From: a virus
IMG/VR virus record: IMGVR_UViG_3300019776_000919
Coordinates: 105,714 to 169,713 of that record
Length of the DNA: 64,000 nucleotides
Reading direction: 5' to 3' (one strand)
Position numbers and translations under genes: made by a program. Position 1 is the first letter of the stretch. Each line of letters opens with the position of its first letter. A model generated the notes under the pieces. That model saw nothing but the letters and a program-made list of their open reading frames with translations. It searched no databases and was not told where the DNA came from. Positions 10,707 to 37,694 of the stretch are shown in pieces.

Positions 10707-13700
10707 ATGACTGATAAAATCAATGCCGTAACTGGAGATAAGTTAACTTATATCTTCTCGTCACCTAAGGAGATTAATGACAAGGTTGATAAAGTTCTAG
10801 TTAAAGGTTTGTCCACTCAGTTCCCAGTGGAAGGTAAGCACTTTCGTTTGGAAGTAGATAACATCCGTGCTGAAAGAAAGAACTATTCTCACGACGATGA
10901 AAAAACAGCTATCCTTCAGAGTAAGAGTCTGACGTACCCTATTAAAGCTAGGCTTAAACTTATTCGTAAAGACACCGGAGAGGTCGTAGATCAGAATCCT
11001 GACTTTACGCTTATGGATGGTTTCCATATGACTGAGAAGCATACTCTGCTCTATAAAGGTAATAACTACGGCGTTGCTAATCAATTACAATTGCTGCCCG
11101 GGGTTTATACCCGTATCGATAACGTGGGTGGGTTAGAGAGTCACTTTAACACTGGCTCAGGTAGAAGCTTTAAGGTTGAACTAGACCCCCAAACCGAACT
11201 TTTTACCATCACTCCTGATGGAACTAGTTCTAAGATTCCTGTTACTCCTCTACTTACTAAAGTATTCGGAGTAGGCCCTTTAGTAGCCAGCAAATACTTC
11301 TCTCCTGAAATCTGGGACAATAACGTTGCTGCTACTGCAGGTAAGGATGACCGCTTTGTAGCAGATCTCTATAGAAAACTAGTTTCTACTTCTAAACAAG
11401 ATCCTCATGCTTCTGTCCCTAAGATGGCTGAACAGCTGAGAGAATCTTTGGCTTCGTCTAAGCTTCACGCTAAGACTACTTTGGCTACGTTAGGGAAGTC
11501 GTTTGAAGGTATCAACGAAGAGACTATTCTTTTGGCGATGAAGAATCTAGCTGATACCGCTAGTAATAAGCGTAAAGAAGATAACCGTGACTCCCTGCAA
11601 TTTAAACGCGTTCAGAATCTTCCGGATTTCCTTAATACTCGTTTCTCTAAAGAGCACCAAGTTGTTAAGTTAATCAAGAGTAGAATGGCCCGGGAACTGG
11701 ATCGTATTAATCCTGAAAAACCCACGCTAAAAAATAGCTTAGTACCTAAGCCTTTCAACAAGTTCCTGTCCGGTTACCTCATGGATAGTAACCTAGTTGC
11801 TACCCCGCAAGAAACCAATCCTTTGGAGAGCATTGAAAACGTTGCTAAGGTAACTGTGTTAGGTGCTGGTGAAGGTGGTATCTCCTCTGATAGAGGCGTA
11901 CCTATCAGTGCCCGAGACATTGACCCATCCCATTTAGGTATCATTGACCCTAGCCGTACACCTGAAAGTGGACACGCTGGTATTGACCAGCGGTTTACCA
12001 TTACTGCAAGACGTGACGATGACGGTAATCTTTACGCTAGAGTAAAGGATAATAATGGCAAGATCAAATTCTTAAGTACTCAAGATATGATGTCTAGTAC
12101 TATCGGATTCCCCCATCAAGAACACAAGGGTAAGGTACAGGCTCAGATCAAAGGCGAATTGGGAGCTTGCGATGCTTCTGAAGTGGATTATTGGTTAGGT
12201 GACACCACTGACATGTACACAGTTACTACTAACTTAGTTCCATTCTTGAATAGCAACAGTCCGGGTAGACTTACTATGGCTGGTAAAGCTATTCCTCAAG
12301 CGCTGAGTCTGGTCAATAGAGAGGAGCCACTTGTTCAAACTACTAATGAGCATGGATTACCTTTTGTTAAATTACTAGCTAAGCTGGGAACTACTGTTGC
12401 CCCTCATGCGGGTACGGTCATGAAGGTTGATGGTAACTCAGTAGTTATCAAATCCCCTGAGGGAAAACTCACTTCTGTAAAAGCAGTTAAGAATCTTCCT
12501 TTTAATATGAAGGGTTTCCATGACGATGAAACTCCTTTGGTTAAAGTCGGAGATACTGTTCAGGAGCATGATCAACTATACGAGAGTAACTACACTAAGA
12601 ATGGAACTCTTGCCTTGGGTAAGAACTTAGAAGTAGCATATATTCCCTGGAAGGGTTATAACCACGAAGACGGATTGGTAATTAGCCAGTCTATAGCTGA
12701 CGGTTTATCTAGCCATCATGCTTATAAAGTTGACTATGAAATCAGCAACGAGTCTGTTCCTAAGAAAGCTTTGTTGGCCCGTTACTTCCCTGGTAAGTTG
12801 ACCAAAGAGCAACTAGACAAGCTCGATGATCGAGGTTTTGCTAAACCCGGCGTTACTCTTGAGCATGGAGACCCTGTATTTGCCGTTCTGGAGCATCGTG
12901 AGCCTACGCCTAGTGATAAGATGCTGGGTCGCTTACATAAGAGCTTAGTGACACCATACAAGCTCATTACTGAAGTATGGAATCATGATGAAGTCGGTAA
13001 GGTTGTTGATGCCCATACTGCAAGTAAGCAGGTTAGATTCATTATCCGTTCTGTAAAGAGTTTAGAAATTGGAGATAAGCTGACTGGACTACATGGCAAT
13101 AAGGGTATCGTATCTTTGATACTCCCTGACTCAAAGATGCCTTACAATAAGAACACTGGTAAGCCGGTTGACATTCTTTTGAACCCTGCTTCCGTTACTT
13201 CACGGGTTAACTTGGGGCAGCTCATGGAAACTGCAGCGGCTAAGATTGCTAAAGCTACTGGTAAGCCATATATGATCCATAACTTTAGTAAAGGTTCTAA
13301 CGTAGCCGAGCTTCAAGAAGAGCTAAAAAAACACGGGTTGTCTGATGCTGAGGATATTGTAGATCCGGAAACGAATCGTACATTGGGTAACATCCTTACC
13401 GGCCCCCAGTACTTTATTAAACTTTATAAAACGTCTGATCAAAACTGGTCGGCTAGAAATACTGGTGGGTATGATGCTAACAATCAACCTACTAAGGGTG
13501 GTGAAGAAGGGTCTAAGAGCGTAGGCTACATGGAAATGCTCGGTTTAATGGGTTCTAATGCTAGAAAGAATCTGAAAGAAATCGCTACCATTAAGAGTGA
13601 AAACAACCAGGAGTATTGGGATAAGTTTTTACAAGGTCAACCTCTACCTAAACCCAAAACTACGTTTGTATCTAAGAAGTTCTTAGATTATCTAACTGCA

Positions 13701-14099
13701 TCAGGCATCAAGACCACTATTCGTGATGGCGTTATTAAAGCTACCCCTTTGACAGACAAAGACATCCTTGCTATGTCAAATGGAGCTATTAAGAATTCAT
13801 CGATGATCAATGCTAAAACCTTAGGTCCTGACAAGGGTGGATTGTTTGACCCTGCGGTTACTGGTGGATTGGATGGAGAGAAATGGGCTCATTATAAGCT
13901 CGTTGAACCTATTCCTAATCCGTTGATGGAAAGACCCATTAAATCTGTTTTGGGTTTATCAACAAAGGATTTCGAAGACATTACCTTAGGTAAGATCGGA
14001 GTACATCGGGAGGGTGATGTGTTTCATTTACACGATATAGATACTGGCAACAGAATTAAATCTGTTAAAATATCTGCTCTAAATACTGCAGCAGAATAA
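10707..14099 (+). CDS. rpoB: RNA polymerase beta-like subunit fused to a beta' N-terminal segment
   Basis: ARDIDPSHLG..DPSRTPES, GYNHEDG, GDKLTGLHGNKG, NPASVTSRVNLGQLME; C-terminal GGLFDP..TGG...WAHYKL..P matches beta' region A. Confidence 0.92.
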   Translation: MTDKINAVTGDKLTYIFSSPKEINDKVDKVLVKGLSTQFPVEGKHFRLEVDNIRAERKNYSHDDEKTAILQSKSLTYPIKARLKLIRKDTGEVVDQNPDFTLMDGFHMTEKHTLLYKGNNYGVANQLQLLPGVYTRIDNVGGLESHFNTGSGRSFKVELDPQTELFTITPDGTSSKIPVTPLLTKVFGVGPLVASKYFSPEIWDNNVAATAGKDDRFVADLYRKLVSTSKQDPHASVPKMAEQLRESLASSKLHAKTTLATLGKSFEGINEETILLAMKNLADTASNKRKEDNRDSLQFKRVQNLPDFLNTRFSKEHQVVKLIKSRMARELDRINPEKPTLKNSLVPKPFNKFLSGYLMDSNLVATPQETNPLESIENVAKVTVLGAGEGGISSDRGVPISARDIDPSHLGIIDPSRTPESGHAGIDQRFTITARRDDDGNLYARVKDNNGKIKFLSTQDMMSSTIGFPHQEHKGKVQAQIKGELGACDASEVDYWLGDTTDMYTVTTNLVPFLNSNSPGRLTMAGKAIPQALSLVNREEPLVQTTNEHGLPFVKLLAKLGTTVAPHAGTVMKVDGNSVVIKSPEGKLTSVKAVKNLPFNMKGFHDDETPLVKVGDTVQEHDQLYESNYTKNGTLALGKNLEVAYIPWKGYNHEDGLVISQSIADGLSSHHAYKVDYEISNESVPKKALLARYFPGKLTKEQLDKLDDRGFAKPGVTLEHGDPVFAVLEHREPTPSDKMLGRLHKSLVTPYKLITEVWNHDEVGKVVDAHTASKQVRFIIRSVKSLEIGDKLTGLHGNKGIVSLILPDSKMPYNKNTGKPVDILLNPASVTSRVNLGQLMETAAAKIAKATGKPYMIHNFSKGSNVAELQEELKKHGLSDAEDIVDPETNRTLGNILTGPQYFIKLYKTSDQNWSARNTGGYDANNQPTKGGEEGSKSVGYMEMLGLMGSNARKNLKEIATIKSENNQEYWDKFLQGQPLPKPKTTFVSKKFLDYLTASGIKTTIRDGVIKATPLTDKDILAMSNGAIKNSSMINAKTLGPDKGGLFDPAVTGGLDGEKWAHYKLVEPIPNPLMERPIKSVLGLSTKDFEDITLGKIGVHREGDVFHLHDIDTGNRIKSVKISALNTAAE

Positions 14100-14396: not shown

Positions 14397-15551
14397 ATGA
14401 ATACAATAGATACCGATAGCTTAGTTACCGGCGGAGCAGCAATCAGAGATATGCTTTCTGCTATAGATGTCAAGTCTCAATTAGAAACTCTAAAAAAAGA
14501 TGTTTTGACTATTAAATCAACGTCTAAAAAAGACGCTATGATTAGGAAGATTAAATATCTTCACAGTCTGGATCAAATGGATAAAAAGCCTGATGACGCT
14601 TACATCCTGAACTACATGCCTGTCATCCCTCCTGTCAACCGTAGAACTTTATTCAAGGCTGGAAATCGTGCTGAACATGCAGATGTTACAACTTTGTATA
14701 AGGACCACATGCTAGTTAATAGCAAACTTGGTGAAATTAAGGACGACGTTGAAGGTTCGGAATTAAAAGATCAAAGAGCTGATTTGTACAACGGCGCTAA
14801 AGCCGTGATGGGATTAGGAGATGCTATCACTGGATCCAGTAGAGGAAAAACCCTTAAAGGTTTCTTGAAGCAGATTGCAGGAGAAACTGGTCCTAAGACA
14901 GGTTTTTTCCAAGCCAAAATTTTAAGTAAGAAGCAAGACTTTTCGGGTAGAGCTACTATTTACGCTGAACCCAATCTTGGCTTTAATGAAATCGCTTGCC
15001 CCGAAGATATGATCTGGGCTATGTATGAGTTTCACATCATTCGAGATTTAGTTAAGAACGGATATACTTATCCGGATGCTAAAAAAGCGGTTGAAAGTAG
15101 AAATGCGTCGGCACAATCTACTTTCAACAAGCTTATTAAGCAGATACCCATTATTGCTAACAGAGCACCTACTCTAATGCAAAGCAACATCACTGCTCAT
15201 TTCCCTGTGCCTATTAAAGGTAAAACATTGGGTATCAATCCGATACACTTACCAATGTACGCAGGGGACTTTGACGGCGATGCTTTAACGGTACACGTAC
15301 CGATTACTCCAGAGGCAATTGACGAGGCTAGAAGGAAGTTGCTTCCTGAGCATCACATGTACGACTTCCGTACAGGTTTGGGAAAATCTCTTATCGCCCC
15401 TGGTCACGAAGCCATTTTAGGATCACACTACTTGACTGATCCAGATATGACTCAGAACGTCAGAGAATTTGATTCTGAAGCGGATGTGTTAAAAGCCCTT
15501 GAAAAAGGTGAGATTCAAAAGAATACACCCATCAAGTTACGTGGCTCTTAA
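14397..15551 (+). CDS. rpoC: RNA polymerase beta' catalytic (middle) subunit
   Basis: KKQDFSGRATI, NRAPTL, catalytic YAGDFDGD. Confidence 0.92.
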   Translation: MNTIDTDSLVTGGAAIRDMLSAIDVKSQLETLKKDVLTIKSTSKKDAMIRKIKYLHSLDQMDKKPDDAYILNYMPVIPPVNRRTLFKAGNRAEHADVTTLYKDHMLVNSKLGEIKDDVEGSELKDQRADLYNGAKAVMGLGDAITGSSRGKTLKGFLKQIAGETGPKTGFFQAKILSKKQDFSGRATIYAEPNLGFNEIACPEDMIWAMYEFHIIRDLVKNGYTYPDAKKAVESRNASAQSTFNKLIKQIPIIANRAPTLMQSNITAHFPVPIKGKTLGINPIHLPMYAGDFDGDALTVHVPITPEAIDEARRKLLPEHHMYDFRTGLGKSLIAPGHEAILGSHYLTDPDMTQNVREFDSEADVLKALEKGEIQKNTPIKLRGS

Positions 15552-15799: not shown

Positions 15800-17158
15800 T
15801 TACACCGCCGACAGATAAGAGGTGTAATCGACAGTACGTTCAGCCACCTTAGTCAGGACAAGAACTACATTATCTTTTGTCTTGTACACAAACTCACCCG
15901 TATCTGCATTGATGGAGTGAACGTCTTTCTGGGTAAACGTGAAAATATCAGATTCTAAAATATCTGACAGAGCGACACTGAGAGTCGGTTTACCATTGAT
16001 AAATACGTTGTTAAAACTAAACTCCGGGTACTTATCACTAACTGCATTTTCTTGTTCATAGGAAGTCTTGGTTTCGGGGTTTTTCCGAACTTCCTCGTAA
16101 TAAGATGATAGTTCCCGAAACAGTTTTGCATTAAATGCCCCCTCATTGATTCCACCTAATTCAGAATTCAACACTGAAATATTCAGCGGCACCCTGATTT
16201 CAAAATGACAGTGGAAATTGATAGGGTTGATATTTAAAGTCGAATTACTAAGTAGATGGCTAGTAATCGGTTTTTGAAAAGCGGGGTGAATAATTACAGG
16301 TTCAAACCGGGTAACTGCATCTGATTCAGGCTTGGTATTAAGCATTGCAATTGCTTTACCTGCAGGCTCGTTATATAGATTCATTTCCCAGATCAGAGCA
16401 CTGAGAGAATCAAAGTTCAAAGACGAGAACAAGCTGCATACTGAAATCAGATCATTCATATGATCTTTATTCTTCAGATTGTCTTCGGCATATTCTTTGA
16501 CGAACTGATGCGACAAACCTTTGAAATTCAGATGGTAGTGAATCCGGCCCGGACGATTGCGAAGGTGTTGGTTGATCTTCGACAGATCATTGCTGGTAAG
16601 CAGGAACAGCTTCTTCGAGGGAAAAGTACCGTCTAGAACAGTGAGCAATGATTGCTGCTGTTCATCGTTAAATACTTTTTCAAATTCATCAAACAGAATA
16701 ATGCATTCTTGTTGAATAGAATACAGAAACTGAAAGAATTGCTCACCAACAACGGCTTCATTGATGACAAGAGTGGGGATGCCTGCGTTGGCACCTTGAA
16801 TAGAAATCAAACGAGCCAACAGGGTTTTACCACTGCCCTTGAGCCCATCCAGCAGCACACCCAAGTTACCTTTCTTTGATTGATAGGTATTCAGGATGCG
16901 ACTTGCTAAGGCCGGAGTCTCGCCATAAATCCTACCCATCTCCGGAAACGGAGAAGTCATCTCTAAAAAGAAACCCGTCTTGAGAGAAAACTTAACTAGA
17001 TAATTTCCAGCGGGAAGTTTATCGTGGATCGGAGGAGTAGATCCTTTGGTATGAGTGAAGAAATTCATACCTTGTTGGATAAAAGAAACTTGAGTCAAAT
17101 CCCGGATAGTTTCTTTTGAAATTTGAACTTGAATAGAAGTATTTTCGATATTGGACAT
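15800..17158 (-). CDS. AAA+ ATPase
   Basis: GLKGSGKT, LFDEFEK, TSN, NRPGRI. Confidence 0.88.
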   Translation of the reverse strand: MSNIENTSIQVQISKETIRDLTQVSFIQQGMNFFTHTKGSTPPIHDKLPAGNYLVKFSLKTGFFLEMTSPFPEMGRIYGETPALASRILNTYQSKKGNLGVLLDGLKGSGKTLLARLISIQGANAGIPTLVINEAVVGEQFFQFLYSIQQECIILFDEFEKVFNDEQQQSLLTVLDGTFPSKKLFLLTSNDLSKINQHLRNRPGRIHYHLNFKGLSHQFVKEYAEDNLKNKDHMNDLISVCSLFSSLNFDSLSALIWEMNLYNEPAGKAIAMLNTKPESDAVTRFEPVIIHPAFQKPITSHLLSNSTLNINPINFHCHFEIRVPLNISVLNSELGGINEGAFNAKLFRELSSYYEEVRKNPETKTSYEQENAVSDKYPEFSFNNVFINGKPTLSVALSDILESDIFTFTQKDVHSINADTGEFVYKTKDNVVLVLTKVAERTVDYTSYLSAV

Positions 17159-17640: not shown

Positions 17641-18525
17641 TTATTCGACGGTGTCAATATCACCATCAGCATCGCCGTTATAAATCGGCATGCGAAGCAT
17701 TTTATGAGCAAGACCCATGGTTTCTACTTGGATAAGTCTACCTATCCAATCCTTGGGATTGTTCCAAGCGTCTATACGTTCATTCCTAGAGAACCCCGAT
17801 CCGACCTTAGCGACTTGCCTGCCAGAAGCATCACAGACTACTACAGCACCCATAGATTGTTTAGGATTCCCATCCTTGTCTATTTCTTGAATGATGTCAG
17901 TTATTTTTAAATTGTAATGTTCTTTGTGCTTTACTTTATATCGAACATTAACATCTTCTGGCTCTGTCAAAGAAGTAATAATAACCCCTTCTTGACCACC
18001 GGCTTTAGTAGAACGTATCAGAGAGTGTATGTCTGAAGGGTTAGAGTATGTTTTTGCAGCGTAGATAAGATCAGGTTTACCGACAATGGATTCTACTCTT
18101 TTCAAATGATCCATTTTATCTTTATAAGTAGGGAAGTCAGGGTTTATTACGTTGTGTAAAACCGCACGGACTGGACCTATTTTGTTTTGTGTATCTATTG
18201 ATCTGGCAGGTAAGGAATTTAGAATACCAGAAACTATCCTATGAGACTCGACATTGGCTTTATTAAAACCCGTATGTATTAATTCTACGTTATATACGTG
18301 ACCCGCAAGTTCCGGATATTTCTTATCTGTTAATTGAGGAAGTTGAAGGGTTCGGTCAGGATAGCCTCCTTTAACAGAAGGACGACGTGATATAAAAGAT
18401 AAACTTCCGTCACTAGACACAGGCATAAAGAAATTAGCCCCGTCATATTTGATTGTAGCAACGGGGTTTCTAATTGACATCCAAGATGTCTCATCTATAT
18501 CCTTGTATTTAGAACGGGAGTACAT
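17641..18525 (-). CDS. minimal ATP-dependent DNA ligase
   Basis: KYDG adenylation motif, EGVII, YKVK, OB-fold KVGSGF...LRMP. Confidence 0.88.
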   Translation of the reverse strand: MYSRSKYKDIDETSWMSIRNPVATIKYDGANFFMPVSSDGSLSFISRRPSVKGGYPDRTLQLPQLTDKKYPELAGHVYNVELIHTGFNKANVESHRIVSGILNSLPARSIDTQNKIGPVRAVLHNVINPDFPTYKDKMDHLKRVESIVGKPDLIYAAKTYSNPSDIHSLIRSTKAGGQEGVIITSLTEPEDVNVRYKVKHKEHYNLKITDIIQEIDKDGNPKQSMGAVVVCDASGRQVAKVGSGFSRNERIDAWNNPKDWIGRLIQVETMGLAHKMLRMPIYNGDADGDIDTVE

Positions 18526-18536
18526 TGCTTATACTA

Positions 18537-18785
18537 TTATTCTGCTCTAGGCTTATCTATTAACAAATGAATACCTTTAGCCATCCCGTATCCAACCGCC
18601 CCGCCAATAAGACCTTCTTTCGGTATTCTGGATATTTTCTGTAATAAGCTTTGATTCTTATAGAAAGGGTGGGTAGCTCCTACTACTGCTCCCGTAAGAC
18701 CTAGCGCGGTCGGGTTTAAAAAGCTTCTATCTGAAATCGGTCTACTAGGTTGATTCTCAGATATTTTAACCAGGTACTTATTCAT
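18537..18785 (-). CDS. small Gly-rich protein with MNKYLVKIS N-terminal tag
   Basis: Tag shared with other proteins; glycine-zipper segments. Confidence 0.75.
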   Translation of the reverse strand: MNKYLVKISENQPSRPISDRSFLNPTALGLTGAVVGATHPFYKNQSLLQKISRIPKEGLIGGAVGYGMAKGIHLLIDKPRAE

Positions 18786-18812
18786 AAGTAATCTTTGATA
18801 AAAAAATGAAAA

Positions 18813-19211
18813 TCAATACTTAGCATGATAATGATCCCCTAATAATTTTGTATATTTATTAGTGAAATCTTTATATGCATATTCATGGCTTGCCACAGGA
18901 TTGCCTAATTTAGCCATATCGCTGGCATATACATCATGTAAAGCTTTGTGATCTTTTTTCAATTCCGGACCATGGACTTTAGAAGTAATAGCGTCAAAAT
19001 ACGCTTGACCACTTATAGACTTACTTTTAGATTTCAATGAAAGTTGTTTTTTTACATTATCGTTATGTCTATTGAAATGCTCTACGTATAAATTGTGTGA
19101 GTCATTCATAAATCTGTTGACTCTATCTTTAACTAAAGCATAATCGACCTTAGGTTCTTCTTTTTTATTGGAAAACGTAATTCCTGCAATTTTTTCTAAA
19201 TATTTATTCAT
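18813..19211 (-). CDS. hypothetical protein with MNKYLEKIA N-terminal tag
   Basis: Tag; ATGA overlap with the upstream helicase gene. Confidence 0.8.
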   Translation of the reverse strand: MNKYLEKIAGITFSNKKEEPKVDYALVKDRVNRFMNDSHNLYVEHFNRHNDNVKKQLSLKSKSKSISGQAYFDAITSKVHGPELKKDHKALHDVYASDMAKLGNPVASHEYAYKDFTNKYTKLLGDHYHAKY

Positions 19212-20674
19212 GATTGATCTTTCATAACTTGTTTAATTTGGTCAAAAACAACTTGCTTATCATCGCTCATACCTGATAAGTATTTGTCTATTGATACCGG
19301 GGCTTTACCAAACATAGGCTTAGGATGAACACTTAGATAATGTTCAATGTCCATATGTCTTTCCTCTTTTGGCAAGTGTTCATGAGATTCATATCTAGCC
19401 CCTCGTCCAACTACTTGCTTTATCTTGCTAGGGTTAAAGTGGGGTTCGAGTACTTGAGTTAGTTTAGTACCTTTAAGATCAAGCCCCTCTGCACCGGAGC
19501 TGGATACTAAAAGAACCTTAACTTTACCTGAATTGTAATTCTTTACCGCCTCATCTTTCTCCGCTTGACTTAGCTTGCCAGAAAACACTACGTGAGGAAT
19601 ATCCTCTTCACTTAGTTTTTTAGCATATTCATGTACACCGGCATCTAAATAATTGCTATAGACAAGACCTTTAAAATTCTTATCCGAACCCATTTTTGTT
19701 TTAAGATTTTCAACAGCCTTCTTTATCTTGGGAGTGTACTCGACATTTTCTGTGTCTTGATGCAGGTGACGATGAGAGTTAGAGACTTGACGAACTCCCG
19801 TTGAGAACGAATTTAACTGGGCTTTTTCTTGTTTATCTAAAGGGAGGTTATTTCTAATTTTCATTCTAAGCCAGAAAGGTATTTGACCTTCCATAAACTT
19901 ATACATTCTTCCTTGTTCAGGAGACATGTCTACTTCTATTGTTTTAGAAGAAGTAGTTGGAAATTTAGACTTAGATTCTGGATCGTCTTTTACATCGTAA
20001 TAAGAAACGTGATCCTTAAACAGAGACCCTAATGCTTTCTTATTTCTAAGTACATCCACTTCTTTGGCGGGATGACGTAACAATACTTCCGCCAGACTTC
20101 TAGGTACTTTTTCTTTACCTAAAAAATGCTTTTCAAATTCTTTTCTATTCTCAGGTAAAACCTTGCCGCCATAAGCCATATTCATGATAGGCGCAATATC
20201 AGCAGCATGGTTGTAGTTAGCAGTAGCAGTAGCTAACACTCTTTTGTCAGCGTCTTGAAATATTTCAGATAAAGCTTGAGTTCTTTTAGTTTCAGTATTG
20301 CGAAGACGTTGTGCTTCGTCGGCAATAGCTAGTACGTATTTATTTTTCTTTAGTTCTGGAGCTATTCTGGTAGCTTTTTCGTAAGAGTAAACATCAAGTC
20401 TTTTACGATCAATTTTTAACTTGTGTTTTTTAATCTCCTTATCTACGTTACTAACTAAGCTAGCGGGGGCTACAACCAATACCTTACCATCTTTATTCTT
20501 GGCTTGAGCACGTTCAGCGGCAACTAAGAAGCCACGAGTTTTTCCAGAGCCCGTTCCCCAGTGTAAAACTACACCATCATTTTTTTCTAGCTTGTCTAAA
20601 GCAGCTTCTACATGAGGGCGTTCCTTTCTACTCTCGGGTTCTGACTTAGCAATTTTCACCAGGTATGGATTCAT
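19208..20674 (-). CDS. SNF2-like SF2 helicase with MNPYLVKIA N-terminal tag
   Basis: GTGSGKT, ADEAQ, ATAT, EGLDLK, QVVGRGAR. Confidence 0.88.
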   Translation of the reverse strand: MNPYLVKIAKSEPESRKERPHVEAALDKLEKNDGVVLHWGTGSGKTRGFLVAAERAQAKNKDGKVLVVAPASLVSNVDKEIKKHKLKIDRKRLDVYSYEKATRIAPELKKNKYVLAIADEAQRLRNTETKRTQALSEIFQDADKRVLATATANYNHAADIAPIMNMAYGGKVLPENRKEFEKHFLGKEKVPRSLAEVLLRHPAKEVDVLRNKKALGSLFKDHVSYYDVKDDPESKSKFPTTSSKTIEVDMSPEQGRMYKFMEGQIPFWLRMKIRNNLPLDKQEKAQLNSFSTGVRQVSNSHRHLHQDTENVEYTPKIKKAVENLKTKMGSDKNFKGLVYSNYLDAGVHEYAKKLSEEDIPHVVFSGKLSQAEKDEAVKNYNSGKVKVLLVSSSGAEGLDLKGTKLTQVLEPHFNPSKIKQVVGRGARYESHEHLPKEERHMDIEHYLSVHPKPMFGKAPVSIDKYLSGMSDDKQVVFDQIKQVMKDQS

Positions 20675-21534
20675 TTTTGTTTATTTTCTAATTCTTTATC
20701 AACGTCTATACCGGGAGCAATACCCCAATTAAGCAACGCTTGTCTTCTTTTAGGTTGAACAGAGAGATCTTGCAGGGTAGGGTCAGCTTTTTGTAATTGA
20801 GCTAAATGCCTGGCTTTAAAGCTAATCCAACGTTTCATCTGACGCTCATCGTCATCGGTCCTCTTACCTGCCACATACCCTTTGTACCATTGATACCAAC
20901 CTTGGGGGTGTTCTTGATTGTGCCACGTATCAGGCCATTTGTCTAGGCTAGCTCGTACCTTGAAAAAATTGCCAGAAGGATCCCCGTCATTGTACTGAGA
21001 CCCTTTATGAACCAACACCCCTAATCGTTGCATTTGATCAGGGGTTAAATCTGGACGAAACTTAGTCCGAACTTCCTCACTGGAAACTGCAATCTTAGTT
21101 AGATATTTGTTTGAGTTCATTGTCGCCTTTTTTTCTAAACCTAGGTTTTTAAACAACCAAGGCTTACCTTTACCATACTTTGTTTCATCCAATTTCTTTA
21201 ACAAAAACCGAGACCCGTCCTTAGTAGAGATAACCAATTTATCTTCATCATCTTGGGGTTCTACCGTAGCTTTACGCACCCAGTCTAGATAAGTTACACC
21301 ACCGCCATATTCACCTTTAGGTATAACTACTTTTTTACTTAAAGCGTATTCTCTATCATGGACAGGTTGCTCAAAAAGGAGTATTGATTTACCCGGCTCA
21401 GGAAGTTCTTTTTTAGTAGCCCATGAATATGCCTTATCGCCTAGGACCATTCTATAATCCCAATGTAATCCCATTCGGTCAGCTTCGTGTCTCTGACGAG
21501 TAAATAATATTTGTTGACCTGATAGAGGATGCAT
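20671..21534 (-). CDS. LigD-type 3'-phosphoesterase domain fused to a domain of unknown function
   Basis: QRHEA..LHWDYR..SWA..EQPVH N-domain; C-domain FRPDLTP..GWYQWY..DDERQMKRW; internal MNSNKYLTKIA at the junction. Confidence 0.75.
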   Translation of the reverse strand: MHPLSGQQILFTRQRHEADRMGLHWDYRMVLGDKAYSWATKKELPEPGKSILLFEQPVHDREYALSKKVVIPKGEYGGGVTYLDWVRKATVEPQDDEDKLVISTKDGSRFLLKKLDETKYGKGKPWLFKNLGLEKKATMNSNKYLTKIAVSSEEVRTKFRPDLTPDQMQRLGVLVHKGSQYNDGDPSGNFFKVRASLDKWPDTWHNQEHPQGWYQWYKGYVAGKRTDDDERQMKRWISFKARHLAQLQKADPTLQDLSVQPKRRQALLNWGIAPGIDVDKELENKQK

Positions 21535-23261: not shown

Positions 23262-25088
23262 ATGTCTGAAAAGTTAACAACTCCTGGTGCAATATTACTT
23301 AAGCACTCTATGCCCAATAAAGAAACTAGGGATGACTATGATCTATATAGACCTTTGGATAAAAAAGGCGTAGCCAACGTAGTAGCATCTTTAATGAAGC
23401 ATGGTGGACCTGAAGCCGCTGAACACATAAATAGTTTGGGTAAATTATTCTTTAACACTGCAAGTGAAATCGGGGCCTCAACCCCTTTGTCAGACTACGT
23501 TAATAATAGTGATGAAAGACACGCTATTACTAATGAGTATGAAATGAAAGTAAACAAGATTATGCTTTCAGATAAATCAAAAGCTCAAAAGAATAATGAA
23601 CTTAAAGAACTTACCGGACAATACAACTTAAAGATCGAAGACCAAAACTTAGCGTTTTTAGATAGTAAGGGCTCAGTAGCTGCTAAGATGGCTAGAACGG
23701 GTGCCCGAGGAAATAAAGCTCAGTTGGCCAGTGGTACTGCCACTCCTCTAATGTCTTTGAATGTTAAGGGTGAGTTGATCCCGTTAGTTATTAAGAAAAG
23801 CTTTGCTGAAGGTATGACTCCGGCTGAATTAATAGCTTTGAGTTACATGGGCAGAAGTTCGACTGTAATGTCTCAGTTAAGTACATCTTTACCTGGAGCA
23901 TTGTTTAAAAAGCTTTCACCTACTGTATTTCATGAAGTTATTACAACAGATGATTGCGGCACTAAGAACGGAATAGATGTTCCTACTGAAGATAAATCTA
24001 GTCTGCTAGGTAGATACACTGCAGGTTATAGTGTTTTAATCACCGAACCTTACTTGAAAGATGCAATCAATTCCGGCAAGAAAAACTTAAAAGTTAGAAG
24101 TGCCTCTACTTGTGAAGCTAAAGAAGGTGTGTGTCAAAAATGTTTTGGATTAATGGCTAACGGTAGATTACCCGAGATCGGGACTAATGTAGGCGTTATT
24201 GCTGCTCAGAGCGTTTCAGAAATTCTAACCCAGCGCATGTTAAGTACAAAGCACCAAGCCAACGTTGGAGCCCGTAAGGGTAATGCGTATGAGTTAGCCG
24301 CCAATCTTATGAATAACCCCACGGAGAACTTTAAAGATGAGGCTACCTTGTCTACTAAGAACGGCATAGTGAACGATATTAAGAAGACTGCACTGGATGC
24401 CTCTCATGTTTACATTGACGGTAAAATGCATTTCGTACCTATTGAACAACAAGTCTTGGTTCAAAAAGGTGACACGGTAAAAATTGGACAACCTATTTCT
24501 ACCGGCACTTTGAACCCTAGAAAGTTGGTAGATTTACGAGGTATCGGGGCCGGTAGAGAATACATGGCTAAAGAACTGAGAAGTATTTACGGAGGTGATT
24601 TAGATCCTCGCCATTTTGAAATTATCGCTAAAAATTTGATTAAGTATGTAGAAGTACAAAACCCTGGTAATACTGGACTTCTACCGGGAGATAAGGTAGA
24701 AGTTAACACTATTCGTAAGTATTTGGATAAAGGATCTGCTGCTGTACATATTAATAAAGCAGAGGGTAGTGTGTTATCCAAAGGAGTTGGTAACTTAGTA
24801 CCTGGCACTTTATTGGACAAAAATCACATCGATGATTTAAAAGAATTAGGAGTAGAGTCAGTATCCGTGAGCAATACTGGATTGACTGTCAAGCCTATTG
24901 TCCCAGGCCTACAAACCGCTAAGATGCTAGATAAAAATTGGGTTTCTAAATTAAGTTTTTCAAGGTTGAGAGATTCATTAAAAGAAAGCACTGCTACCGG
25001 GGCAGAAAGTGAAATTCACAGCACTGATCCTATTGCTAGTTATGTAATGGGTTCAGAGTTTGGCGAAGGCGTACATGGTAAGTATTAA
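23262..25088 (+). CDS. rpoC: RNA polymerase beta' C-terminal subunit
   Basis: TGARG, SFAEG, DCGT, C....GVCQKCFG Zn site, trigger-loop GVIAAQSVSE..TQ...TKH, RHFEII. Confidence 0.9.
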   Translation: MSEKLTTPGAILLKHSMPNKETRDDYDLYRPLDKKGVANVVASLMKHGGPEAAEHINSLGKLFFNTASEIGASTPLSDYVNNSDERHAITNEYEMKVNKIMLSDKSKAQKNNELKELTGQYNLKIEDQNLAFLDSKGSVAAKMARTGARGNKAQLASGTATPLMSLNVKGELIPLVIKKSFAEGMTPAELIALSYMGRSSTVMSQLSTSLPGALFKKLSPTVFHEVITTDDCGTKNGIDVPTEDKSSLLGRYTAGYSVLITEPYLKDAINSGKKNLKVRSASTCEAKEGVCQKCFGLMANGRLPEIGTNVGVIAAQSVSEILTQRMLSTKHQANVGARKGNAYELAANLMNNPTENFKDEATLSTKNGIVNDIKKTALDASHVYIDGKMHFVPIEQQVLVQKGDTVKIGQPISTGTLNPRKLVDLRGIGAGREYMAKELRSIYGGDLDPRHFEIIAKNLIKYVEVQNPGNTGLLPGDKVEVNTIRKYLDKGSAAVHINKAEGSVLSKGVGNLVPGTLLDKNHIDDLKELGVESVSVSNTGLTVKPIVPGLQTAKMLDKNWVSKLSFSRLRDSLKESTATGAESEIHSTDPIASYVMGSEFGEGVHGKY

Positions 25089-25094
25089 TTAAAT

Positions 25095-25901
25095 ATGGCA
25101 ACTACAATAAAAGGGGTTTCTGCTACTAGCGGGCAGAGAGTGGCCAAGATCAAGGATATAGTTAAAACCTTGATAGATTCTCATTTCCCGTCCACATTAG
25201 CTAGAGAGCCTGATATCATCAACGTAGTCAATGCACTTTGCTTTTTGGAAAGTTCTTATAACTATAATGCTGTTGGTGGGGTAGTATCTTCTACTCCTCA
25301 TACTGGCGGCGGTATTTATCTATCAAGCTCTGCAGTATCAGCAGTAATGAATAACCCGAGTTCAACTCCTACTCAGAAAAGTAATATTTTGCAAGGACTT
25401 ACTGCCTTAGGGGTTATGCAGGTAATGGGTCATAATTTTGTAAAAGGCGGAACCCCTTCTGGTAAATCTGAACTTGAAAGACTTAGACCTGACATAGCCA
25501 GTACATTAGTAGTAAATCCCGGGGATGATATAAGAGCTTCTGTACTGGGGGAATCAAATTTACAAAAAGCAATTCTTGCAGGGTTAATTATCCTGGAAGG
25601 TAAATATAGATCTGTTAATCAAACCGGTTCATATTTTTCTATTAAAGCAGATCCTTATGCTAGAAAATTTTCAAGTAGATTGCAGGGGGCTGTGGCTGCA
25701 TATTTAGGATTAGGTAAACAAGACAAAAATGGTACTACTCCTGAGAACTATGCTAATCAAATATTAGGCGGTTCTATTTACGCCCAGGCAAATGGTAAAG
25801 GATCTATTTATGTCAGAGATACTGACTTAAATCTGGCTTTAGCATCTACCCCTTCTACCAACGGATCCAGTATGCATACGTTAGGCCCTGCTGGTTGCTA
25901 A
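25095..25901 (+). CDS. lytic transglycosylase (SLT)-like protein
   Basis: LESSYN catalytic Glu motif, GVMQVM, AVAAY. Confidence 0.6.
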   Translation: MATTIKGVSATSGQRVAKIKDIVKTLIDSHFPSTLAREPDIINVVNALCFLESSYNYNAVGGVVSSTPHTGGGIYLSSSAVSAVMNNPSSTPTQKSNILQGLTALGVMQVMGHNFVKGGTPSGKSELERLRPDIASTLVVNPGDDIRASVLGESNLQKAILAGLIILEGKYRSVNQTGSYFSIKADPYARKFSSRLQGAVAAYLGLGKQDKNGTTPENYANQILGGSIYAQANGKGSIYVRDTDLNLALASTPSTNGSSMHTLGPAGC

Positions 25902-25913
25902 CTCAATTATACA

Positions 25914-25926
25914 TACGAACTAAAAT
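25914..25926 (+). promoter_or_regulatory. + strand promoter-like motif TACGAAYTAAAAT
   Basis: Same 13-mer at 28549 and 56330, all intergenic before structural genes. Confidence 0.6.
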
Positions 25927-25959
25927 AAGCTATAATCCCACAACAGTAACTAAATAATT

Positions 25960-27879
25960 ATGGAATTCTCAGACATCGCTTTGGCTAAGTTTTTGCAAGT
26001 TGCCCCGGAACTAGGCCCCTACATTCTTAACTTCTCAAAGATTAATGATGAAATGGGGGATGCTACTTCGGGAGTAGAAGTTGGTGTATTTATTCTCAAT
26101 ACCGGTTCCGGCCTAGCGTATGTGCCGGTTATTGGTAAGGGTGATACAGTATTCCCTATTGATTCTATTTTCCTAGAATCGGAATCTCTGTTTAGACCTT
26201 TGAGCCCTTCTAGTATTTCATACATAGTAAATACTGCATCAACAAGCTTAGGTAAAACTGTTAAGATTCCAGACACTGTTGACCAAAATCCAAGTTTGAT
26301 GAACATGATCAATCCTCCTAGGACTGGTAAGTTCATATACGCGTCCGCTAGTAGACTGCCAGAATTCCTAGCCGTTGTACCAGGAAACATCAGAAAAGCT
26401 CTGTTTGAAAAAATTGCATCCGAGCAAAGTGTTTACACTTCCCTGGATAAACTGTTTGGCCTCAAGGCTATTTTCTCTGTTCTCAATGGGGATCATGGCG
26501 GCTCCGGCGTAGCTAACAATGTTGCTTCCGGACCCGATGCAGTTAGAGTAAACAATCTTTCTGTAATCACCACACCTCAAGAAGTAAAAGCTCTTTTAAA
26601 TGACGCTGCTGCCAAAACTTTCTTGGATCAAGGCTATGTAATTCAAGGCGAACCTGGAGCTTTCAGAGCTGCCGTATCATACTTTCCGTATGATAAGATT
26701 GGTCAATACTTTAAGATTAATCCCGCATCAGACGGTGGAAAAGACTATAAGATTGCAATGGGTAATGGAGAGGTAAATACTGCTTTCATTCCTAAATACC
26801 ATTTGCTAAATCCCGTACCCTCTAAGAACTCTTTGGCTGCTGTATTTGCAGACGGTAGCTATGCTACTGGAGAAATGATTGCAGTTGGCGGACCTCTTCT
26901 AAAAGAAGATGTATTGAATTTAGTATTTTCACTAAACCCCCCGATCCTATTAAAAGAGTTAAATCAACAAGACAGATTCCTGATTTTTACTACCTCTGGA
27001 GAAGCATTAGGCCCCTTTACTGCTCACGGAGTTATTCGTACCAGCATGGGCGTTGAGATCAAAACTTATTCCGGTAAAGTAAAACGTATTTGTGGTTATA
27101 ATAATTTCACTAAAGAAGTTGATCAAGTAGGTGATACACTATTTGTACCCTTTAATGCAATCGTCCTTCCATTAAGAGAAGATGTCACGTTAGACCTAGA
27201 ACGAAGCATTAATGGGGCTTTAAACAAACAAGAACTTTGTGCATCACAACTATTGAGTCAGGAAATGAATCTCCGTTATGACGGAGTAGAGTTTTCAACT
27301 GACGACAGAGTCCTTGGTAAATTTGCCTCTGCTATGAAGTATCTAGTAGAGGGTGAGAATATTGAACCAGACGTAGCTAGCAATTTCCTGAAACAAGCTG
27401 AAGAAACTAGTTACTTGAAGATCTTCATGTCTAAGGAAGCATCTGCTGCTTCTACTGATTTCAAGCCAGCAGAAATTCCTCAGTATGGTACTTCGGCACC
27501 TATGGATCAACAAGTTGGTTTAAACGGGGCGCTAATCCCGTCAATACAATCATCAACTGCTTTAGGGGATTCTCAAGTAGTTGAATCAACTATTATTTCC
27601 CAACTGCTGCAAGTACCTGATTTATTTGAATATATTCAGGAATACTTGCCTGAACTAGAACAAACAGTTGATAGACTGGGTAGAATTCTATTCATGACTC
27701 GTGCTAAAATTGATCAAATTTCAGCGTCGTTGGATTCGGATTCTGTTTTCAGCATGATTTCTCAGATTAAAACAGTTTATCGCCAACTCGGAGATACTAC
27801 CTTGAAGCTCAAGGGTATGTCTAATATGGCAATCGGCTATAAGAGAGAAGACGCTGAGAATACACCTCAAGGCTCTTAA
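25960..27879 (+). CDS. putative head/core protein
   Basis: 639 aa ORF in the head block; FEKIAS, LGKFAS, MSKEAS motifs. Confidence 0.6.
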   Translation: MEFSDIALAKFLQVAPELGPYILNFSKINDEMGDATSGVEVGVFILNTGSGLAYVPVIGKGDTVFPIDSIFLESESLFRPLSPSSISYIVNTASTSLGKTVKIPDTVDQNPSLMNMINPPRTGKFIYASASRLPEFLAVVPGNIRKALFEKIASEQSVYTSLDKLFGLKAIFSVLNGDHGGSGVANNVASGPDAVRVNNLSVITTPQEVKALLNDAAAKTFLDQGYVIQGEPGAFRAAVSYFPYDKIGQYFKINPASDGGKDYKIAMGNGEVNTAFIPKYHLLNPVPSKNSLAAVFADGSYATGEMIAVGGPLLKEDVLNLVFSLNPPILLKELNQQDRFLIFTTSGEALGPFTAHGVIRTSMGVEIKTYSGKVKRICGYNNFTKEVDQVGDTLFVPFNAIVLPLREDVTLDLERSINGALNKQELCASQLLSQEMNLRYDGVEFSTDDRVLGKFASAMKYLVEGENIEPDVASNFLKQAEETSYLKIFMSKEASAASTDFKPAEIPQYGTSAPMDQQVGLNGALIPSIQSSTALGDSQVVESTIISQLLQVPDLFEYIQEYLPELEQTVDRLGRILFMTRAKIDQISASLDSDSVFSMISQIKTVYRQLGDTTLKLKGMSNMAIGYKREDAENTPQGS

Positions 27880-27887
27880 GATTAACA

Positions 27888-28529
27888 ATGGCACAAGTAC
27901 ATGCCAAATTTCTTTTAGTAAGACAAAAAACTACGGGGGTTGATGCCACCGTAGATGCAATTCTTTCTGGAAAACCAGAGGACAAAGATACTAGGGCTTT
28001 ATTTGATAAGGCCCGTAGTATTTATAATTCCCCGATTAAAAAAAGCTACGTAGAAGCTTGCTTAATGGCAACCACGGACATGGATAAGATAGGTGAACTA
28101 TTATCCATGTCAAGAGAGTTGTTAGAGATGTATAAAAACATCTTCTTTGACATAGAGGGTTATGACAAGCTAAGCTTGATGGAGGTAATTGAAAATGCCG
28201 ACTCTCCCGATGAAAAAGGAATGAAGATTTGGGCATTGAGTCAAGGCCTGGACTTCGTAGCTTGGAGACTTGGAAAAGCCGTTAGTATTAATCCTGTTGA
28301 AGGCTTGCAGGAATTATTTACCTTAGCTGTCTATAAGAGTAAGGAAGCTTTATTCTCAGGTAAAGATACTGAGGCTAGTAAAGCTGCTACTACTTGGACA
28401 AAACTGAGTATGGACTTAGCCCGTATTCTTAAAGCTTGGGTGTCAGACTCGGAAGCTGCTAAAGCTGATATTGAATTGGCTTTGAAATCTATTGACCCTG
28501 AATTCCAAGGGTTTGACTCCATACAATAA
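27888..28529 (+). CDS. hypothetical protein (head block)
   Basis: 213 aa ORF in operon. Confidence 0.7.
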   Translation: MAQVHAKFLLVRQKTTGVDATVDAILSGKPEDKDTRALFDKARSIYNSPIKKSYVEACLMATTDMDKIGELLSMSRELLEMYKNIFFDIEGYDKLSLMEVIENADSPDEKGMKIWALSQGLDFVAWRLGKAVSINPVEGLQELFTLAVYKSKEALFSGKDTEASKAATTWTKLSMDLARILKAWVSDSEAAKADIELALKSIDPEFQGFDSIQ

Positions 28530-28548
28530 AACTAATACTTATTAGGCC

Positions 28549-28561
28549 TACGAATTAAAAT
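28549..28561 (+). promoter_or_regulatory. + strand promoter-like motif TACGAATTAAAAT
   Basis: Motif copy ending 6 nt before ATG 28568. Confidence 0.6.
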
Positions 28562-28567
28562 CAACTT

Positions 28568-29635
28568 ATGGCAACTATTACCATTCAAGATCTACAAGAA
28601 ATCGCTGTGCAAGCCACTAGTGATTTTTTTAACAATCAAGTCCCTCTGAATCAATCCCTTGCTAAGCAGGCATCTGAGCGTGGACTTAATTCGGAACAGC
28701 TAAAAAGAGCTATTGAGACTACTAATACTTTGACTCATTTAAAGAGTATTGAAGTATCCAAGGATAGAACCGTAGAGTTTCCTGTTGCAGACTACACGTC
28801 AATTGTTAAAATGGCTTCAGTCCCTAATTTGACTGGCCCAGAAGACGAAGACGTACCTGACGGAGATGCTCACGGCTTCGTAGAAAAAGCAGCTTCTGCA
28901 GAAAGCATCCTAGCATACACTCCTCCTGATATGACGGAGAATGAGAAAATGTTGCATCTGCAGAAAGCTGCGCATATTAATAAAGTTGCTTTGGAAAACG
29001 CTCAAATTAATTTGAGAATTACCGGAGAAACTCTTCTAAAACAGGCTTTCGAACTAAGAAAAGACCCTCAGTTTATAGAGCATCTTTCAGCATCTTCTGC
29101 CGATAGTTTTCAATTTGAAAAGATTTCTACTCTTGTTTTAGGATCTATCGTTGATAGAAAAGATTACACAAACGGTATGTTTAAATCTGCTCAATTGAAT
29201 GAAGTAGAATCATTTGTTTCTCTTTACAAGCAGGCCAGTGAATTGACTTCTGAAATCAAAACCAGAAAGAATATGGACGAACGCTGGGAAATGATTAAAC
29301 AAGCTTCCATTTTAGGTTCTCTTGCTCAAGGGGTGGCTAAGTATACAACGAAAGCAGTGGTTGCCCCGGCTAAGTTAATGGGAAAAGCAATATCGGCTCC
29401 ACTAGTAGCAGGAGCCGGGGTTGTTGGAAGACGGGTTAACAATGCTATTGCCAGTACCGGTGCAGGCAAAGCCGCAGGATTCACACCTAAACCTACTAAC
29501 CCCGCGTTAGCTAAAAAAGTTATGGCTGTAGGAACTGGAGTAGGCATGGCAGCTATGGATGCCTCTGCTTTTGAGCCAAAATCTGATCCTATGGGGTATG
29601 GTCAAGGCCGTATCTGGGATAATCTACAAAGATAA
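28568..29635 (+). CDS. putative head core protein rich in K-x-A motifs
   Basis: LAKQAS, IVKMAS, VEKAAS, LYKQAS, MIKQAS; Gly/Ala-rich C-terminus. Confidence 0.65.
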   Translation: MATITIQDLQEIAVQATSDFFNNQVPLNQSLAKQASERGLNSEQLKRAIETTNTLTHLKSIEVSKDRTVEFPVADYTSIVKMASVPNLTGPEDEDVPDGDAHGFVEKAASAESILAYTPPDMTENEKMLHLQKAAHINKVALENAQINLRITGETLLKQAFELRKDPQFIEHLSASSADSFQFEKISTLVLGSIVDRKDYTNGMFKSAQLNEVESFVSLYKQASELTSEIKTRKNMDERWEMIKQASILGSLAQGVAKYTTKAVVAPAKLMGKAISAPLVAGAGVVGRRVNNAIASTGAGKAAGFTPKPTNPALAKKVMAVGTGVGMAAMDASAFEPKSDPMGYGQGRIWDNLQR

Positions 29636-29648
29636 ATTGAGAACAAAA

Positions 29649-30179
29649 ATGAACGAACAAATTCAAGAACTTTACGAATACGGCTTGGAAAAATACGCCG
29701 GAGATAAGACCGCTGCTAAAGATTTTGTAGTGGCTTTTATAAAAGAGGCTAGTGGTGCTGAAGTTGCTAAGCTGGGATGGAATACTGTAGGTAGATCTGC
29801 CCTACAAGCCTTGGGTGGAGCGTCGGTAGGTATTGGTGTAGGGTTAGGTATTCATGGGCTGTCTAGTATGATAAACGCCGCAGGTAATGCGGGTTTACAC
29901 GCTAAATTTAAAGAAGCTTTCAGTAAGGCTATCGCTATGAATCCCGTAGTTGCAGAGGGTCATAGATCAGAACCCGCTAAAGTAGATTCTTATGCGGAAA
30001 CCATTTTTAAGTTTGCTCCTCATGTTGCCTGTGATGCTAATTTACTAAGTACTGTTTTAGCTAATGCCGTACATGGTGAAAACGTAGATCCTACTATTAT
30101 TAAGTCTATTGTTGACCTAGAGTCCAAGCTTATCGAGACTCGTAAAAATTCTTTATTCACTCCTAAAACCTATCTATAA
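29649..30179 (+). CDS. putative head core protein with glycine zipper
   Basis: Start moved to ATG 29649 to avoid overlap; LEKYAG, FIKEAS; GGASVGIGVGLGIHG. Confidence 0.65.
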   Translation: MNEQIQELYEYGLEKYAGDKTAAKDFVVAFIKEASGAEVAKLGWNTVGRSALQALGGASVGIGVGLGIHGLSSMINAAGNAGLHAKFKEAFSKAIAMNPVVAEGHRSEPAKVDSYAETIFKFAPHVACDANLLSTVLANAVHGENVDPTIIKSIVDLESKLIETRKNSLFTPKTYL

Positions 30180-30180
30180 A

Positions 30181-30444: not shown

Positions 30445-30452
30445 ATTACCCC

Positions 30453-31976: not shown

Positions 31977-32031
31977 TTCAGTCAATTTAGTTAAGAATAA
32001 TCTAAACAGAAAACCAAGGATAAAAAATAAA

Positions 32032-33969: not shown

Positions 33970-34002
33970 TTTGGAAGACCTGGGAAACTAGGTCTTTTAA
34001 AA

Positions 34003-35132: not shown

Positions 35133-35134
35133 AA

Positions 35135-36193: not shown

Positions 36194-36289
36194 CAATTCT
36201 GTATTAAAATACCTAATATAGAATACAGAAGTTGAAATAGTTCAACTTCTATCTAAAAATAACTCTTCAACACAAAGGATATTTATAAC

Positions 36290-37687: not shown

Positions 37688-37694
37688 CTTTTGG

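Follow-up and report, generated by a model that had tools for sequence, protein, structure and literature searches.

We analysed a five-gene cassette at positions 17,641–21,534 of a 64,000-nucleotide stretch (the window) that forms the final 64 kb of a complete phage genome of 169,713 bp, bounded by direct terminal repeats (IMG/VR record IMGVR_UViG_3300019776_000919, positions 105,714–169,713). The cassette encodes a fusion of a LigD-type 3'-phosphoesterase (PE) domain with a C-terminal domain (C-domain), an SNF2-family ATPase, two small proteins and a minimal ATP-dependent DNA ligase, and all but the ligase carry a short peptide of the type NKYLxKIA (the tag). This is the five-gene block that a first-pass annotation of the sequence had described, and both its coordinates and its enzyme identities hold. 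It lies in a minus-strand block that runs from 23163 down to 15548 and is flanked on both sides by plus-strand RNA polymerase genes (Table 1). Synteny with the cultured relative Salmonella phage Arash (OQ632216), together with PHROG matches, gives the gene order as portal (8589), RNA polymerase (10707 and 14397), the minus-strand block, RNA polymerase (23262), head genes including a candidate prohead protease (30453) and a scaffold-like protein of 645 residues (32032), four further tagged genes, capsid (36726) and, later, tail sheath (56404), so that the cassette sits among portal, RNA polymerase, protease and capsid genes. The annotation had called the cassette one operon. The genes are indeed co-directional and overlapping or closely spaced, but promoter and terminator scans of the cassette performed no better than on shuffled sequence, and for this reason the operon has to be read from the overlaps and spacing, by which co-transcription of the five genes is likely.

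Table 1. Coordinates of the cassette, its domains and the neighbouring genes discussed in the text (positions in the window; aa, amino acids; nt, nucleotides; pLDDT, predicted local distance difference test)
Feature	Position	Strand	Remarks
PE fusion, 287 aa	20671-21534	minus	
LigD-type PE domain, residues 1-133	21136-21534	minus	Pfam, phmmer and fold match
Inter-domain linker, residues 134-151	21082-21135	minus	pLDDT 52-64 between domains >90
C-domain, residues 152-287	20674-21081	minus	folds confidently alone
SNF2 ATPase, 488 aa	19208-20674	minus	4-nt overlap with PE gene
Tagged 132-aa protein	18813-19211	minus	4-nt overlap with SNF2 gene
Tagged 82-aa glycine-rich protein	18537-18785	minus	27-nt gap to 132-aa gene
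Minimal ATP-dependent DNA ligase, 294 aa, no tag	17641-18525	minus	11-nt gap to 82-aa gene
Phage multisubunit RNA polymerase genes, untagged	10707-14099, 14397-15551	plus	53% and 52% identity to Arash Gp206
RNA polymerase beta'-type subunit gene, untagged	23262-25088	plus	48% identity to Arash Gp216
Candidate prohead protease, 507 aa	30453-31976	plus	phrog_18299 'head maturation protease' 3.1e-9; 41% identity to Arash Gp222
Second cluster, four tagged genes	34003-34542, 35135-35383, 35373-35702, 35699-36193	plus	between protease/scaffold-like genes and capsid gene
Major capsid protein, 305 aa	36726-37643	plus	48% identity to Arash Gp226 (major capsid protein); phrog_2522 3.7e-7

Enzymes and small proteins of the cassette

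The N-terminal part of the PE fusion matches Pfam LigD_N (PF13298) with 33.1 bits against a cut-off of 31.1 and the archaeal PE 3P43 in both phmmer (1.1e-10) and Foldseek (1.4e-8) searches. The AlphaFold model has a pLDDT above 95 over residues 1–133 and superposes on 3P4H with a VIA Z score of 15.1 (root mean square deviation 1.9, 113 residues aligned) and on 3N9B with a Z score of 13.2. Residues H16, H24, D26, R28, H59 and Y63 align with QRH...LHYDFR...HPLAY of 3P43, and we take these six to be the catalytic set known from Pseudomonas aeruginosa LigD. By fold and catalytic motifs, residues 1–133 are a LigD-type 3'-phosphoesterase, with the activity predicted from sequence and model. The linker that follows is the sole low-confidence stretch of the model, and it contains the only two K-x-A motifs of the protein, EKKA at 135–137 and TKIA at 147–149. 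The second ends an internal tag, NKYLTKIA, at residues 142–149 (nt 21088–21111, score 29.6 in the position matrix described below), with Met139 just upstream.

The C-domain, when folded alone, gave a pLDDT of 91 and a predicted template modelling score of 0.85, and has no match in Pfam, NCBIfam or PHROGs. In the PDB searches its sole fold match was the ORFan C-domain of the mimivirus sulfhydryl oxidase R596 (3TD7; Z 6.2 over 97 aligned residues; next Z 3.6). The ESM Atlas returned unnamed clusters only, at 0.78, and BFVD one unnamed relative. The C-domain is conserved among phages, in which its fusion partners include PE, ligase and NUDIX modules.

The 488-residue protein is an SNF2-family ATPase as judged from its sequence, with Pfam matches above cut-off to SNF2-rel_dom (PF00176, 47.3 bits against 24.9) and Helicase_C (PF00271, 54.5 bits against 23.5) and with motifs I, II, III and VI all present as GTGSGKT, DEAQ, TAT and QVVGRGAR. 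Its best match among solved structures is the Sulfolobus SNF2 core 1Z63 (7e-7), and there is a weak match to vaccinia NPH-I (8.5e-5).

The ligase matches phrog_114 at 6.9e-20, and tblastn linked it to phage DNA ligases with E values down to 2e-13. The nucleotidyltransferase motifs I, III, IV and V occur in order as K26-Y-D-G, VYNVELIH, EGVII and KVKHK, and a C-terminal OB domain is suggested by a PF14743 score below the cut-off of 28 bits (23.2 bits) and by a match at E 0.011 to the OB region of the PBCV-1 ligase. The PF01068 profile does not detect this protein. On its motifs and matches the 294-residue protein is a minimal, Chlorella-virus-like ATP-dependent DNA ligase. It is the sole DNA-ligase-type gene in the whole genome, which also holds no NAD-dependent ligase. 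The single other ligase-like gene is an RNA-ligase-type open reading frame (ORF) of 868 residues outside the window (G000:C1:49709-50380), with a match to PF09414 at 2.7e-6 that is below cut-off.

Neither small protein has a match in PHROGs, Pfam or NCBIfam. No homologue of similar length to the 132-residue protein was found among 5.8 billion proteins, and its whole length can be aligned with a C-terminal module, itself preceded by a tag, of the 411-residue PE fusion P0004 (E 7e-6). The 82-residue protein has no homologue once its tag is removed.

Searching with the Ku profile (PF02735) detected the protein in the control genome of B. subtilis and found none in the window, as had been stated before, or anywhere in the complete genome. 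No polymerase or primase domain was found by Pfam or NCBIfam in any cassette protein, and PE and ligase are separate genes here. With neither Ku nor a polymerase domain, end joining or circularisation is therefore unlikely; the earlier suggestion that the cassette might circularise the incoming genome finds no support, and repair of nicks or 3' ends fits better. In relatives these enzymes are linked in several further ways: PE-helicase fusions make up 27 of 116 helicase homologues, PE-ligase fusions are common, C-domain-ligase fusions and fusions of a helix-hairpin-helix (HhH) domain with ligase also exist, and PE, helicase and ligase remain neighbours in at least three different genomic contexts.

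Of the other genes near the cassette, the 520-residue protein upstream has no match in PHROGs, Pfam or NCBIfam, and a 452-residue AAA+ ATPase in the same minus-strand block as the cassette (15800–17158) is kept in one relative (L007) and not in others. Directly after the capsid gene, a 499-residue protein (37695–39194) with weak matches to the Mom family (7.5e-5) and DUF723 is a possible DNA-modification enzyme on the basis of those matches. A DNA-level search against cultured phages gave no match.

Sequence and distribution of the tag

We scored tag sites with a position matrix over the whole 169,713-bp genome and found exactly eight, with scores of 24.7–32.6, the next best site scoring 12.1. 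Four lie in the cassette: besides the internal site of the PE fusion, these are the N-terminal MNPYLVKIA of the SNF2 ATPase (nt 20648–20671), MNKYLEKIA of the 132-residue protein (nt 19185–19208) and MNKYLVKIS of the 82-residue protein (nt 18759–18782, score 26.2). The ligase of this genome has no tag of this type, and the count of four tagged proteins in five given by the annotation is thus confirmed. The remaining four are found at the start of genes that lie shortly before the capsid gene (34003, 35135, 35373 and 35699).

When IMG/VR was scanned for sequences that could encode MNKYLxKIA, 65 loci produced 83 matches, nearly all at true ORF starts, on proteins of 50–633 residues. In the 56 non-redundant cases, residue 6, which the scan left unconstrained, is glutamate in 43, and there is no conservation beyond residue 9. 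Five relatives with genomes of 145–193 kb, four of them at least 90% complete, have 6–8 tag sites each and none in a reversed-pattern control, whereas 596 Gb of bacterial and archaeal genomes yielded three matches, and the contig of one of these has one gene that is related to this phage. No tag sites occur in Arash or PA-SR01, both cultured relatives.

The codons of the tag bear on what is conserved. Synonymous codons vary freely (AAT to AAC 39:18, six leucine codons and all four alanine codons), and because every synonymous position varies, selection must act on the peptide. A shared stretch that served as a DNA-level recombination linker or as a translation-start element, with no function for the peptide, would account for the free shuffling of tag-flanked modules between relatives, but the codon data already contradict it and the motif is also kept inside proteins; we consider this explanation the most remote of those discussed here. 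Lysine 7 of the tag is invariant, as would be expected if the tag marked substrates of a ubiquitin-like conjugation system with the K-I-A lysine as acceptor. Conjugation genes, however, show no positional link to the tag, and K-x-A is also found without a preceding NKYL, so that this too is very improbable.

The tag of this phage matches five of the nine residues (M1, Y4, E6, I8 and A9) of the T4 capsid-targeting sequence MKTYQEFIAE, which is carried by the internal proteins IPI–III and removed by the prohead protease gp21 inside the head (bioRxiv 10.1101/2021.01.19.427310; PMC3012670), and it is because of this match that we read it as an address peptide. Its genomic distribution leans towards the head. 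Of the 112 non-redundant tagged ORFs of related loci, the head module holds 72, the PE-helicase-ligase cassette 19 and the neck/tail region 12; the tag is N-terminal in 93 of the 112, on protein bodies that are unrelated to one another, and most tagged genes encode small glycine-rich or basic proteins between the protease and capsid genes. A tagged glycine-rich protein of 179 residues reached only E 0.06 in a direct comparison with the Arash virion protein Gp224.

Among helicase homologues, 103 of 116 have a strong tag, and the median distance from it to the Walker A motif that follows is 37 residues. The PE domain never has a tag in front: in 71 of 89 PE-first proteins the tag directly follows the domain, sometimes with only a short tail after it, and PE homologues together have 95 internal tag sites and 10 near the C terminus. 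The ligase is tagged in several relatives, in the arrangements tag-HhH domain-tag-like motif-ligase (L014, L046, L048), C-domain-tag-ligase (P0058) and PE-tag-ligase (P0110). The tag is thus a border element that can move, rather than a leader confined to the N terminus.

These could instead be the positions of a peptide that is unconnected with capsid loading and docks its proteins onto some hub inside the infected cell (the phage RNA polymerase, a part of the replisome or a host protein, for example), the cassette then being an intracellular repair or replication module whose ligase seals Okazaki fragments. Short linear docking motifs occur at N-terminal, internal and near-C-terminal positions just as the tag does, the main carriers of the tag are DNA enzymes, among them helicases, PE and ligase, and the ligase is the only gene of its type in the genome. 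The prevalence of tagged small proteins between the protease and capsid genes speaks against such a hub, as do the ending of the tag in a motif enriched only in head proteins and the abundance of the Arash helicase orthologue in virion preparations (both described below); moreover, cargo that bound a packaged polymerase would reach the capsid anyway. We regard docking to a hub as unlikely.

Two further readings of the tag were rejected. It is unlike the clamp-binding motif QL[SD]LF, and most tagged genes are those of the small head-module proteins; as a signal peptide or membrane anchor it would be short, it is charged, and it also occurs internally.

Many tagged genes in related loci have A/T-rich upstream regions without an obvious Shine-Dalgarno sequence, which may say something about the host. 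Two ligases carry a tagged N-terminal HhH domain (L014:1276-2637 and L048:3065-4114), and P0047, which has a similar module, bears the name 'endonuclease III' in its source; this domain make-up may point to a pathway of the base-excision type in which PE cleans the 3' ends. Tagged proteins of 222–260 residues (L023:138-917, L018:3849-4613, L035:2678-3343; P0008, P0020) have a Y-H-G-T motif as in ADP-ribosyltransferases of the H-Y-E type, one with a weak Tpt1/KptA match (1.1e-3, below cut-off), and may be counterparts of T4 Alt, a protein that also carries the capsid-targeting sequence. Very basic tagged ORFs of 50–58 residues (L013:2555, L047:3795, L037, L023, L024, L057, L060) lie, in many relatives, between homologues of the window genes at 27888 and 28568 and are reminiscent of the basic internal proteins of T4.

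Putative processing at K-x-A and virion data from Arash

The tag ends in K-I-A, and we measured the enrichment of K-x-A against composition-matched shuffles. In this genome the head module has 70 occurrences against 37.4 expected, compared with 205 against 196 elsewhere, and the head proteins of 197, 355 and 645 residues have z-scores of 5.3, 4.7 and 4.0. Across relatives the head module has 968 against 468 expected, a ratio of 2.07, whereas other classes are at about 1.1 and the cassette at 0.73. The motif also recurs at defined places: K-E-A at about residues 27–29 of the capsid protein is invariant in 11 relatives and present in Arash, and in the candidate protease K31 and A33 are the same in all 16 sequences compared, that of Arash among them, with a variable residue between the two. 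A second invariant K-x-A is seen in the protease at residues 218–220. Linkers after PE typically read (M/I)-E-K-K-A, then 0–4 residues, then N-K-Y-L-E-K-I-A, and in PE-ligase fusions K-x-A stands directly before YYTRHKY or MFERPKY, where free-standing ligases begin. The only K-x-A of the 132-residue cassette protein lies in its tag, and the ligase has none. From these patterns in window 25000–37700 and in related loci, K-x-A looks like the cutting code of the head protease in this lineage.

The 645-residue scaffold-like protein (32032–33969) has an acidic N terminus and several copies of a helix motif, G-[VI]-D-[FY]-D-x-A-x-x-[LM]-V-K-Q-A, that also occurs in the neighbouring 197-residue protein (34539–35132). 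As far as its sequence suggests, this protein or its helix motif could be the partner of the tag.

If K-x-A is a cutting code, the tag might be mainly a recognition or cleavage signal for the protease at the borders of polyprotein modules, the tagged proteins being internal head or scaffold-like parts to which enzyme domains are fused without a role after injection. Tags and (M/I)EKKA motifs stand exactly at domain junctions, K-x-A is enriched in the scaffold-like proteins, and 34 of the 105 tags that are not N-terminal have a methionine just upstream, as fossil start codons would. Yet PE, ligase and SNF2 retain their catalytic residues, the PE-helicase-ligase linkage has been held through changes of genomic context, and N-K-Y-L is conserved as strongly as the K-x-A cut site, which together make a pure cleavage signal quite improbable.

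Virion data exist for Arash. Its Gp217, named 'DNA helicase' (PMC10585845), is the orthologue of the cassette SNF2 protein (39.6% identity over 96% of the protein), and its gene begins on the final base of the gene for RNA polymerase beta'. Mass spectrometry of Arash virions found 38 unique peptides and 1148 spectra for Gp217 (PMC10585845), compared with 1210 spectra for the RNA polymerase Gp216, 1333 for the capsid protein and 3516 for Gp206, the top protein (PMC10585845). The helicase orthologue is thus about as abundant in virion preparations as Gp216 and the capsid protein. In Arash the gene of this orthologue adjoins that for RNA polymerase beta' and its product is abundant by virion mass spectrometry, although Gp217, unlike the cassette protein, is without a tag. 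Searches by tblastn found neither a PE-C-domain fusion nor a ligase like that of the cassette in Arash.

Taken together, these data give an even chance, in our judgement, that the tagged proteins are cargo loaded into the capsid and trimmed by the protease. The first-pass annotation had proposed that a helicase and accessory proteins are packaged and co-injected, which the data bear out in part. In favour of this are the likeness of the tag to that of T4, its conservation as a peptide throughout the clade, its bias towards the head module, its K-x-A end and the abundance of the Arash helicase in virions; the other side of the balance is that this helicase reaches the virion untagged and that the ligase has no tag here. 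For the PE and the ligase, packaging is something that we infer.

Several observations weigh against capsid loading. The tag is often internal or near the C terminus, unlike that of T4, which fits a general docking motif equally well, and the T4 rule of cutting after glutamate is not kept, residue 10 being glutamate in only 9 of 56 cases. The identification of the prohead protease is tentative and comes from one PHROG match; a single-sequence search and a profile of 16 sequences linked the protein neither to Pfam protease families nor to solved proteases in the PDB. K-x-A is depleted in the folded bodies of the helicase, PE and ligase (observed/expected 0.49, 0.46 and 0.23, compared with 0.98–1.52 for the mirror motif A-x-K), but the sequences counted are related to one another and the control motifs spread from 0.28 to 2.43, and for both reasons we count the depletion as suggestive only. 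The Arash list gives 116 of 272 proteins as virion-associated, ribonucleotide reductase among them (PMC10585845), and as it includes such non-structural enzymes it therefore contains contaminants. Gp217 is found in the Arash preparations despite having no tag, and the RNA polymerase subunits of the phage studied here are untagged as well. Finally, the ligase may simply serve replication, since it is untagged here and the genome's only DNA-ligase-type gene.

Proposed function and comparison with known systems

Assuming capsid loading, the cassette could be described as a Ku-independent kit for 3'-end healing and nick sealing, made of PE and a minimal ATP ligase, that has been joined to the core SNF2 motor of the lineage and is encoded inside the module for the head and the virion RNA polymerase. 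The sequence (M)NKYLxK-I-A would be an address tag fused to a cut site, in the manner of the T4 capsid-targeting sequence. Through it the four tagged proteins of the cassette would dock into the prohead during assembly, and the prohead protease would there cut at K-x-A, removing the tag and splitting PE from the C-domain at the linker. At the next infection the trimmed proteins would be ejected together with the DNA. In the newly infected cell the SNF2 motor would most likely work with the co-packaged RNA polymerase, as NPH-I does in vaccinia, and PE, with the ligase where that is loaded, would clear 3'-phosphate or 3'-ribonucleotide blocks and seal nicks in the incoming genome before phage gene expression. 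All of these steps, from the docking and the K-x-A cut to ejection and the role in the cell, are ones that we infer, and a repair role in the incoming DNA after injection seems to us doubtful rather than probable.

We put forward tentatively, and with somewhat less than even confidence, the wider proposition that a widespread clade of uncultured phages with genomes of about 170–190 kb loads a nick-repair kit and an SNF2 motor beside its virion RNA polymerase, with a T4-like tag that doubles as a K-x-A site and with polyproteins that are cut in the head. As part of this joint proposition, the kit would comprise a 3'-end-cleaning enzyme and a ligase and, in some members, also HhH-type, NUDIX and ADP-ribosyltransferase-like modules. 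If it is true, the incoming genome arrives with its own repair crew, which mends nicks and blocked 3' ends before gene expression, and this would bear on how phages survive host nucleases and environmental DNA damage. It would also mean that capsid-address tags of the T4 type arose or survived far outside the T4 family in combination with a different protease code, and that an eight-residue tag with a defined cut site could be a handle for loading chosen proteins into the capsids of this clade.

Address tags (T4; P1 DarB, PMC9024508) and virion enzymes are already known. In the literature that we searched, we found no clade-wide tag of this sequence, no K-x-A code and no repair enzymes as cargo, and queries for the tag string and for phage PE-SNF2 systems returned nothing relevant; the injected phage proteins in this literature are inhibitors, modifiers and RNA polymerases, and a DNA repair kit is not reported among them.

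As in T4, the tag is a peptide of about 9–10 residues that starts otherwise unrelated proteins, the bodies of the putative cargo proteins are hypervariable, the end of the tag is a putative protease site, and relatives of this phage have small basic proteins and ADP-ribosyltransferase-like cargo. Unlike T4, the lineage is an unrelated one with a capsid protein of 305 residues, its own multisubunit RNA polymerase and no Pfam match to a T4-type protease; the putative cut falls after K-x-A and not L/I-x-E; and the tag persists inside proteins and near C termini, with DNA repair enzymes and a helicase among the putative cargo. A second likeness is to DarB of phage P1, a large nucleic-acid enzyme with methyltransferase and helicase domains that an N-terminal signal brings into the head and that is delivered along with the DNA. 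This 250-kDa protein is loaded through its N-terminal 30 residues as part of the Dar anti-restriction system, whose proteins have no common tag sequence (PMC9024508); the P1 cargo protects against type I restriction and includes no PE or ligase.

In vaccinia (PDB 6RFL, NPH-I), the virion multisubunit RNA polymerase is packaged with an SNF2-family ATPase for early transcription, an arrangement that resembles the one proposed here, and NPH-I is weakly matched by the phage protein as noted above. Vaccinia, however, is a eukaryotic virus, and the tie between helicase and polymerase in the phage is drawn from gene adjacency and from the similar spectral counts in Arash. The PE shares its fold and catalytic residues with the bacterial LigD-Ku system and the stand-alone archaeal PE (PDB 3N9B, 3P43, 3P4H), and in both the phage and LigD it is paired with an ATP-dependent ligase, to which it is fused in some relatives. 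The phage differs from LigD-Ku in having no Ku and no polymerase domain, in encoding PE and ligase as separate genes and in the SNF2 motor that accompanies them here, and by this comparison its likely job is the repair of nicks or 3' ends rather than the joining of double-strand breaks that LigD-Ku performs.

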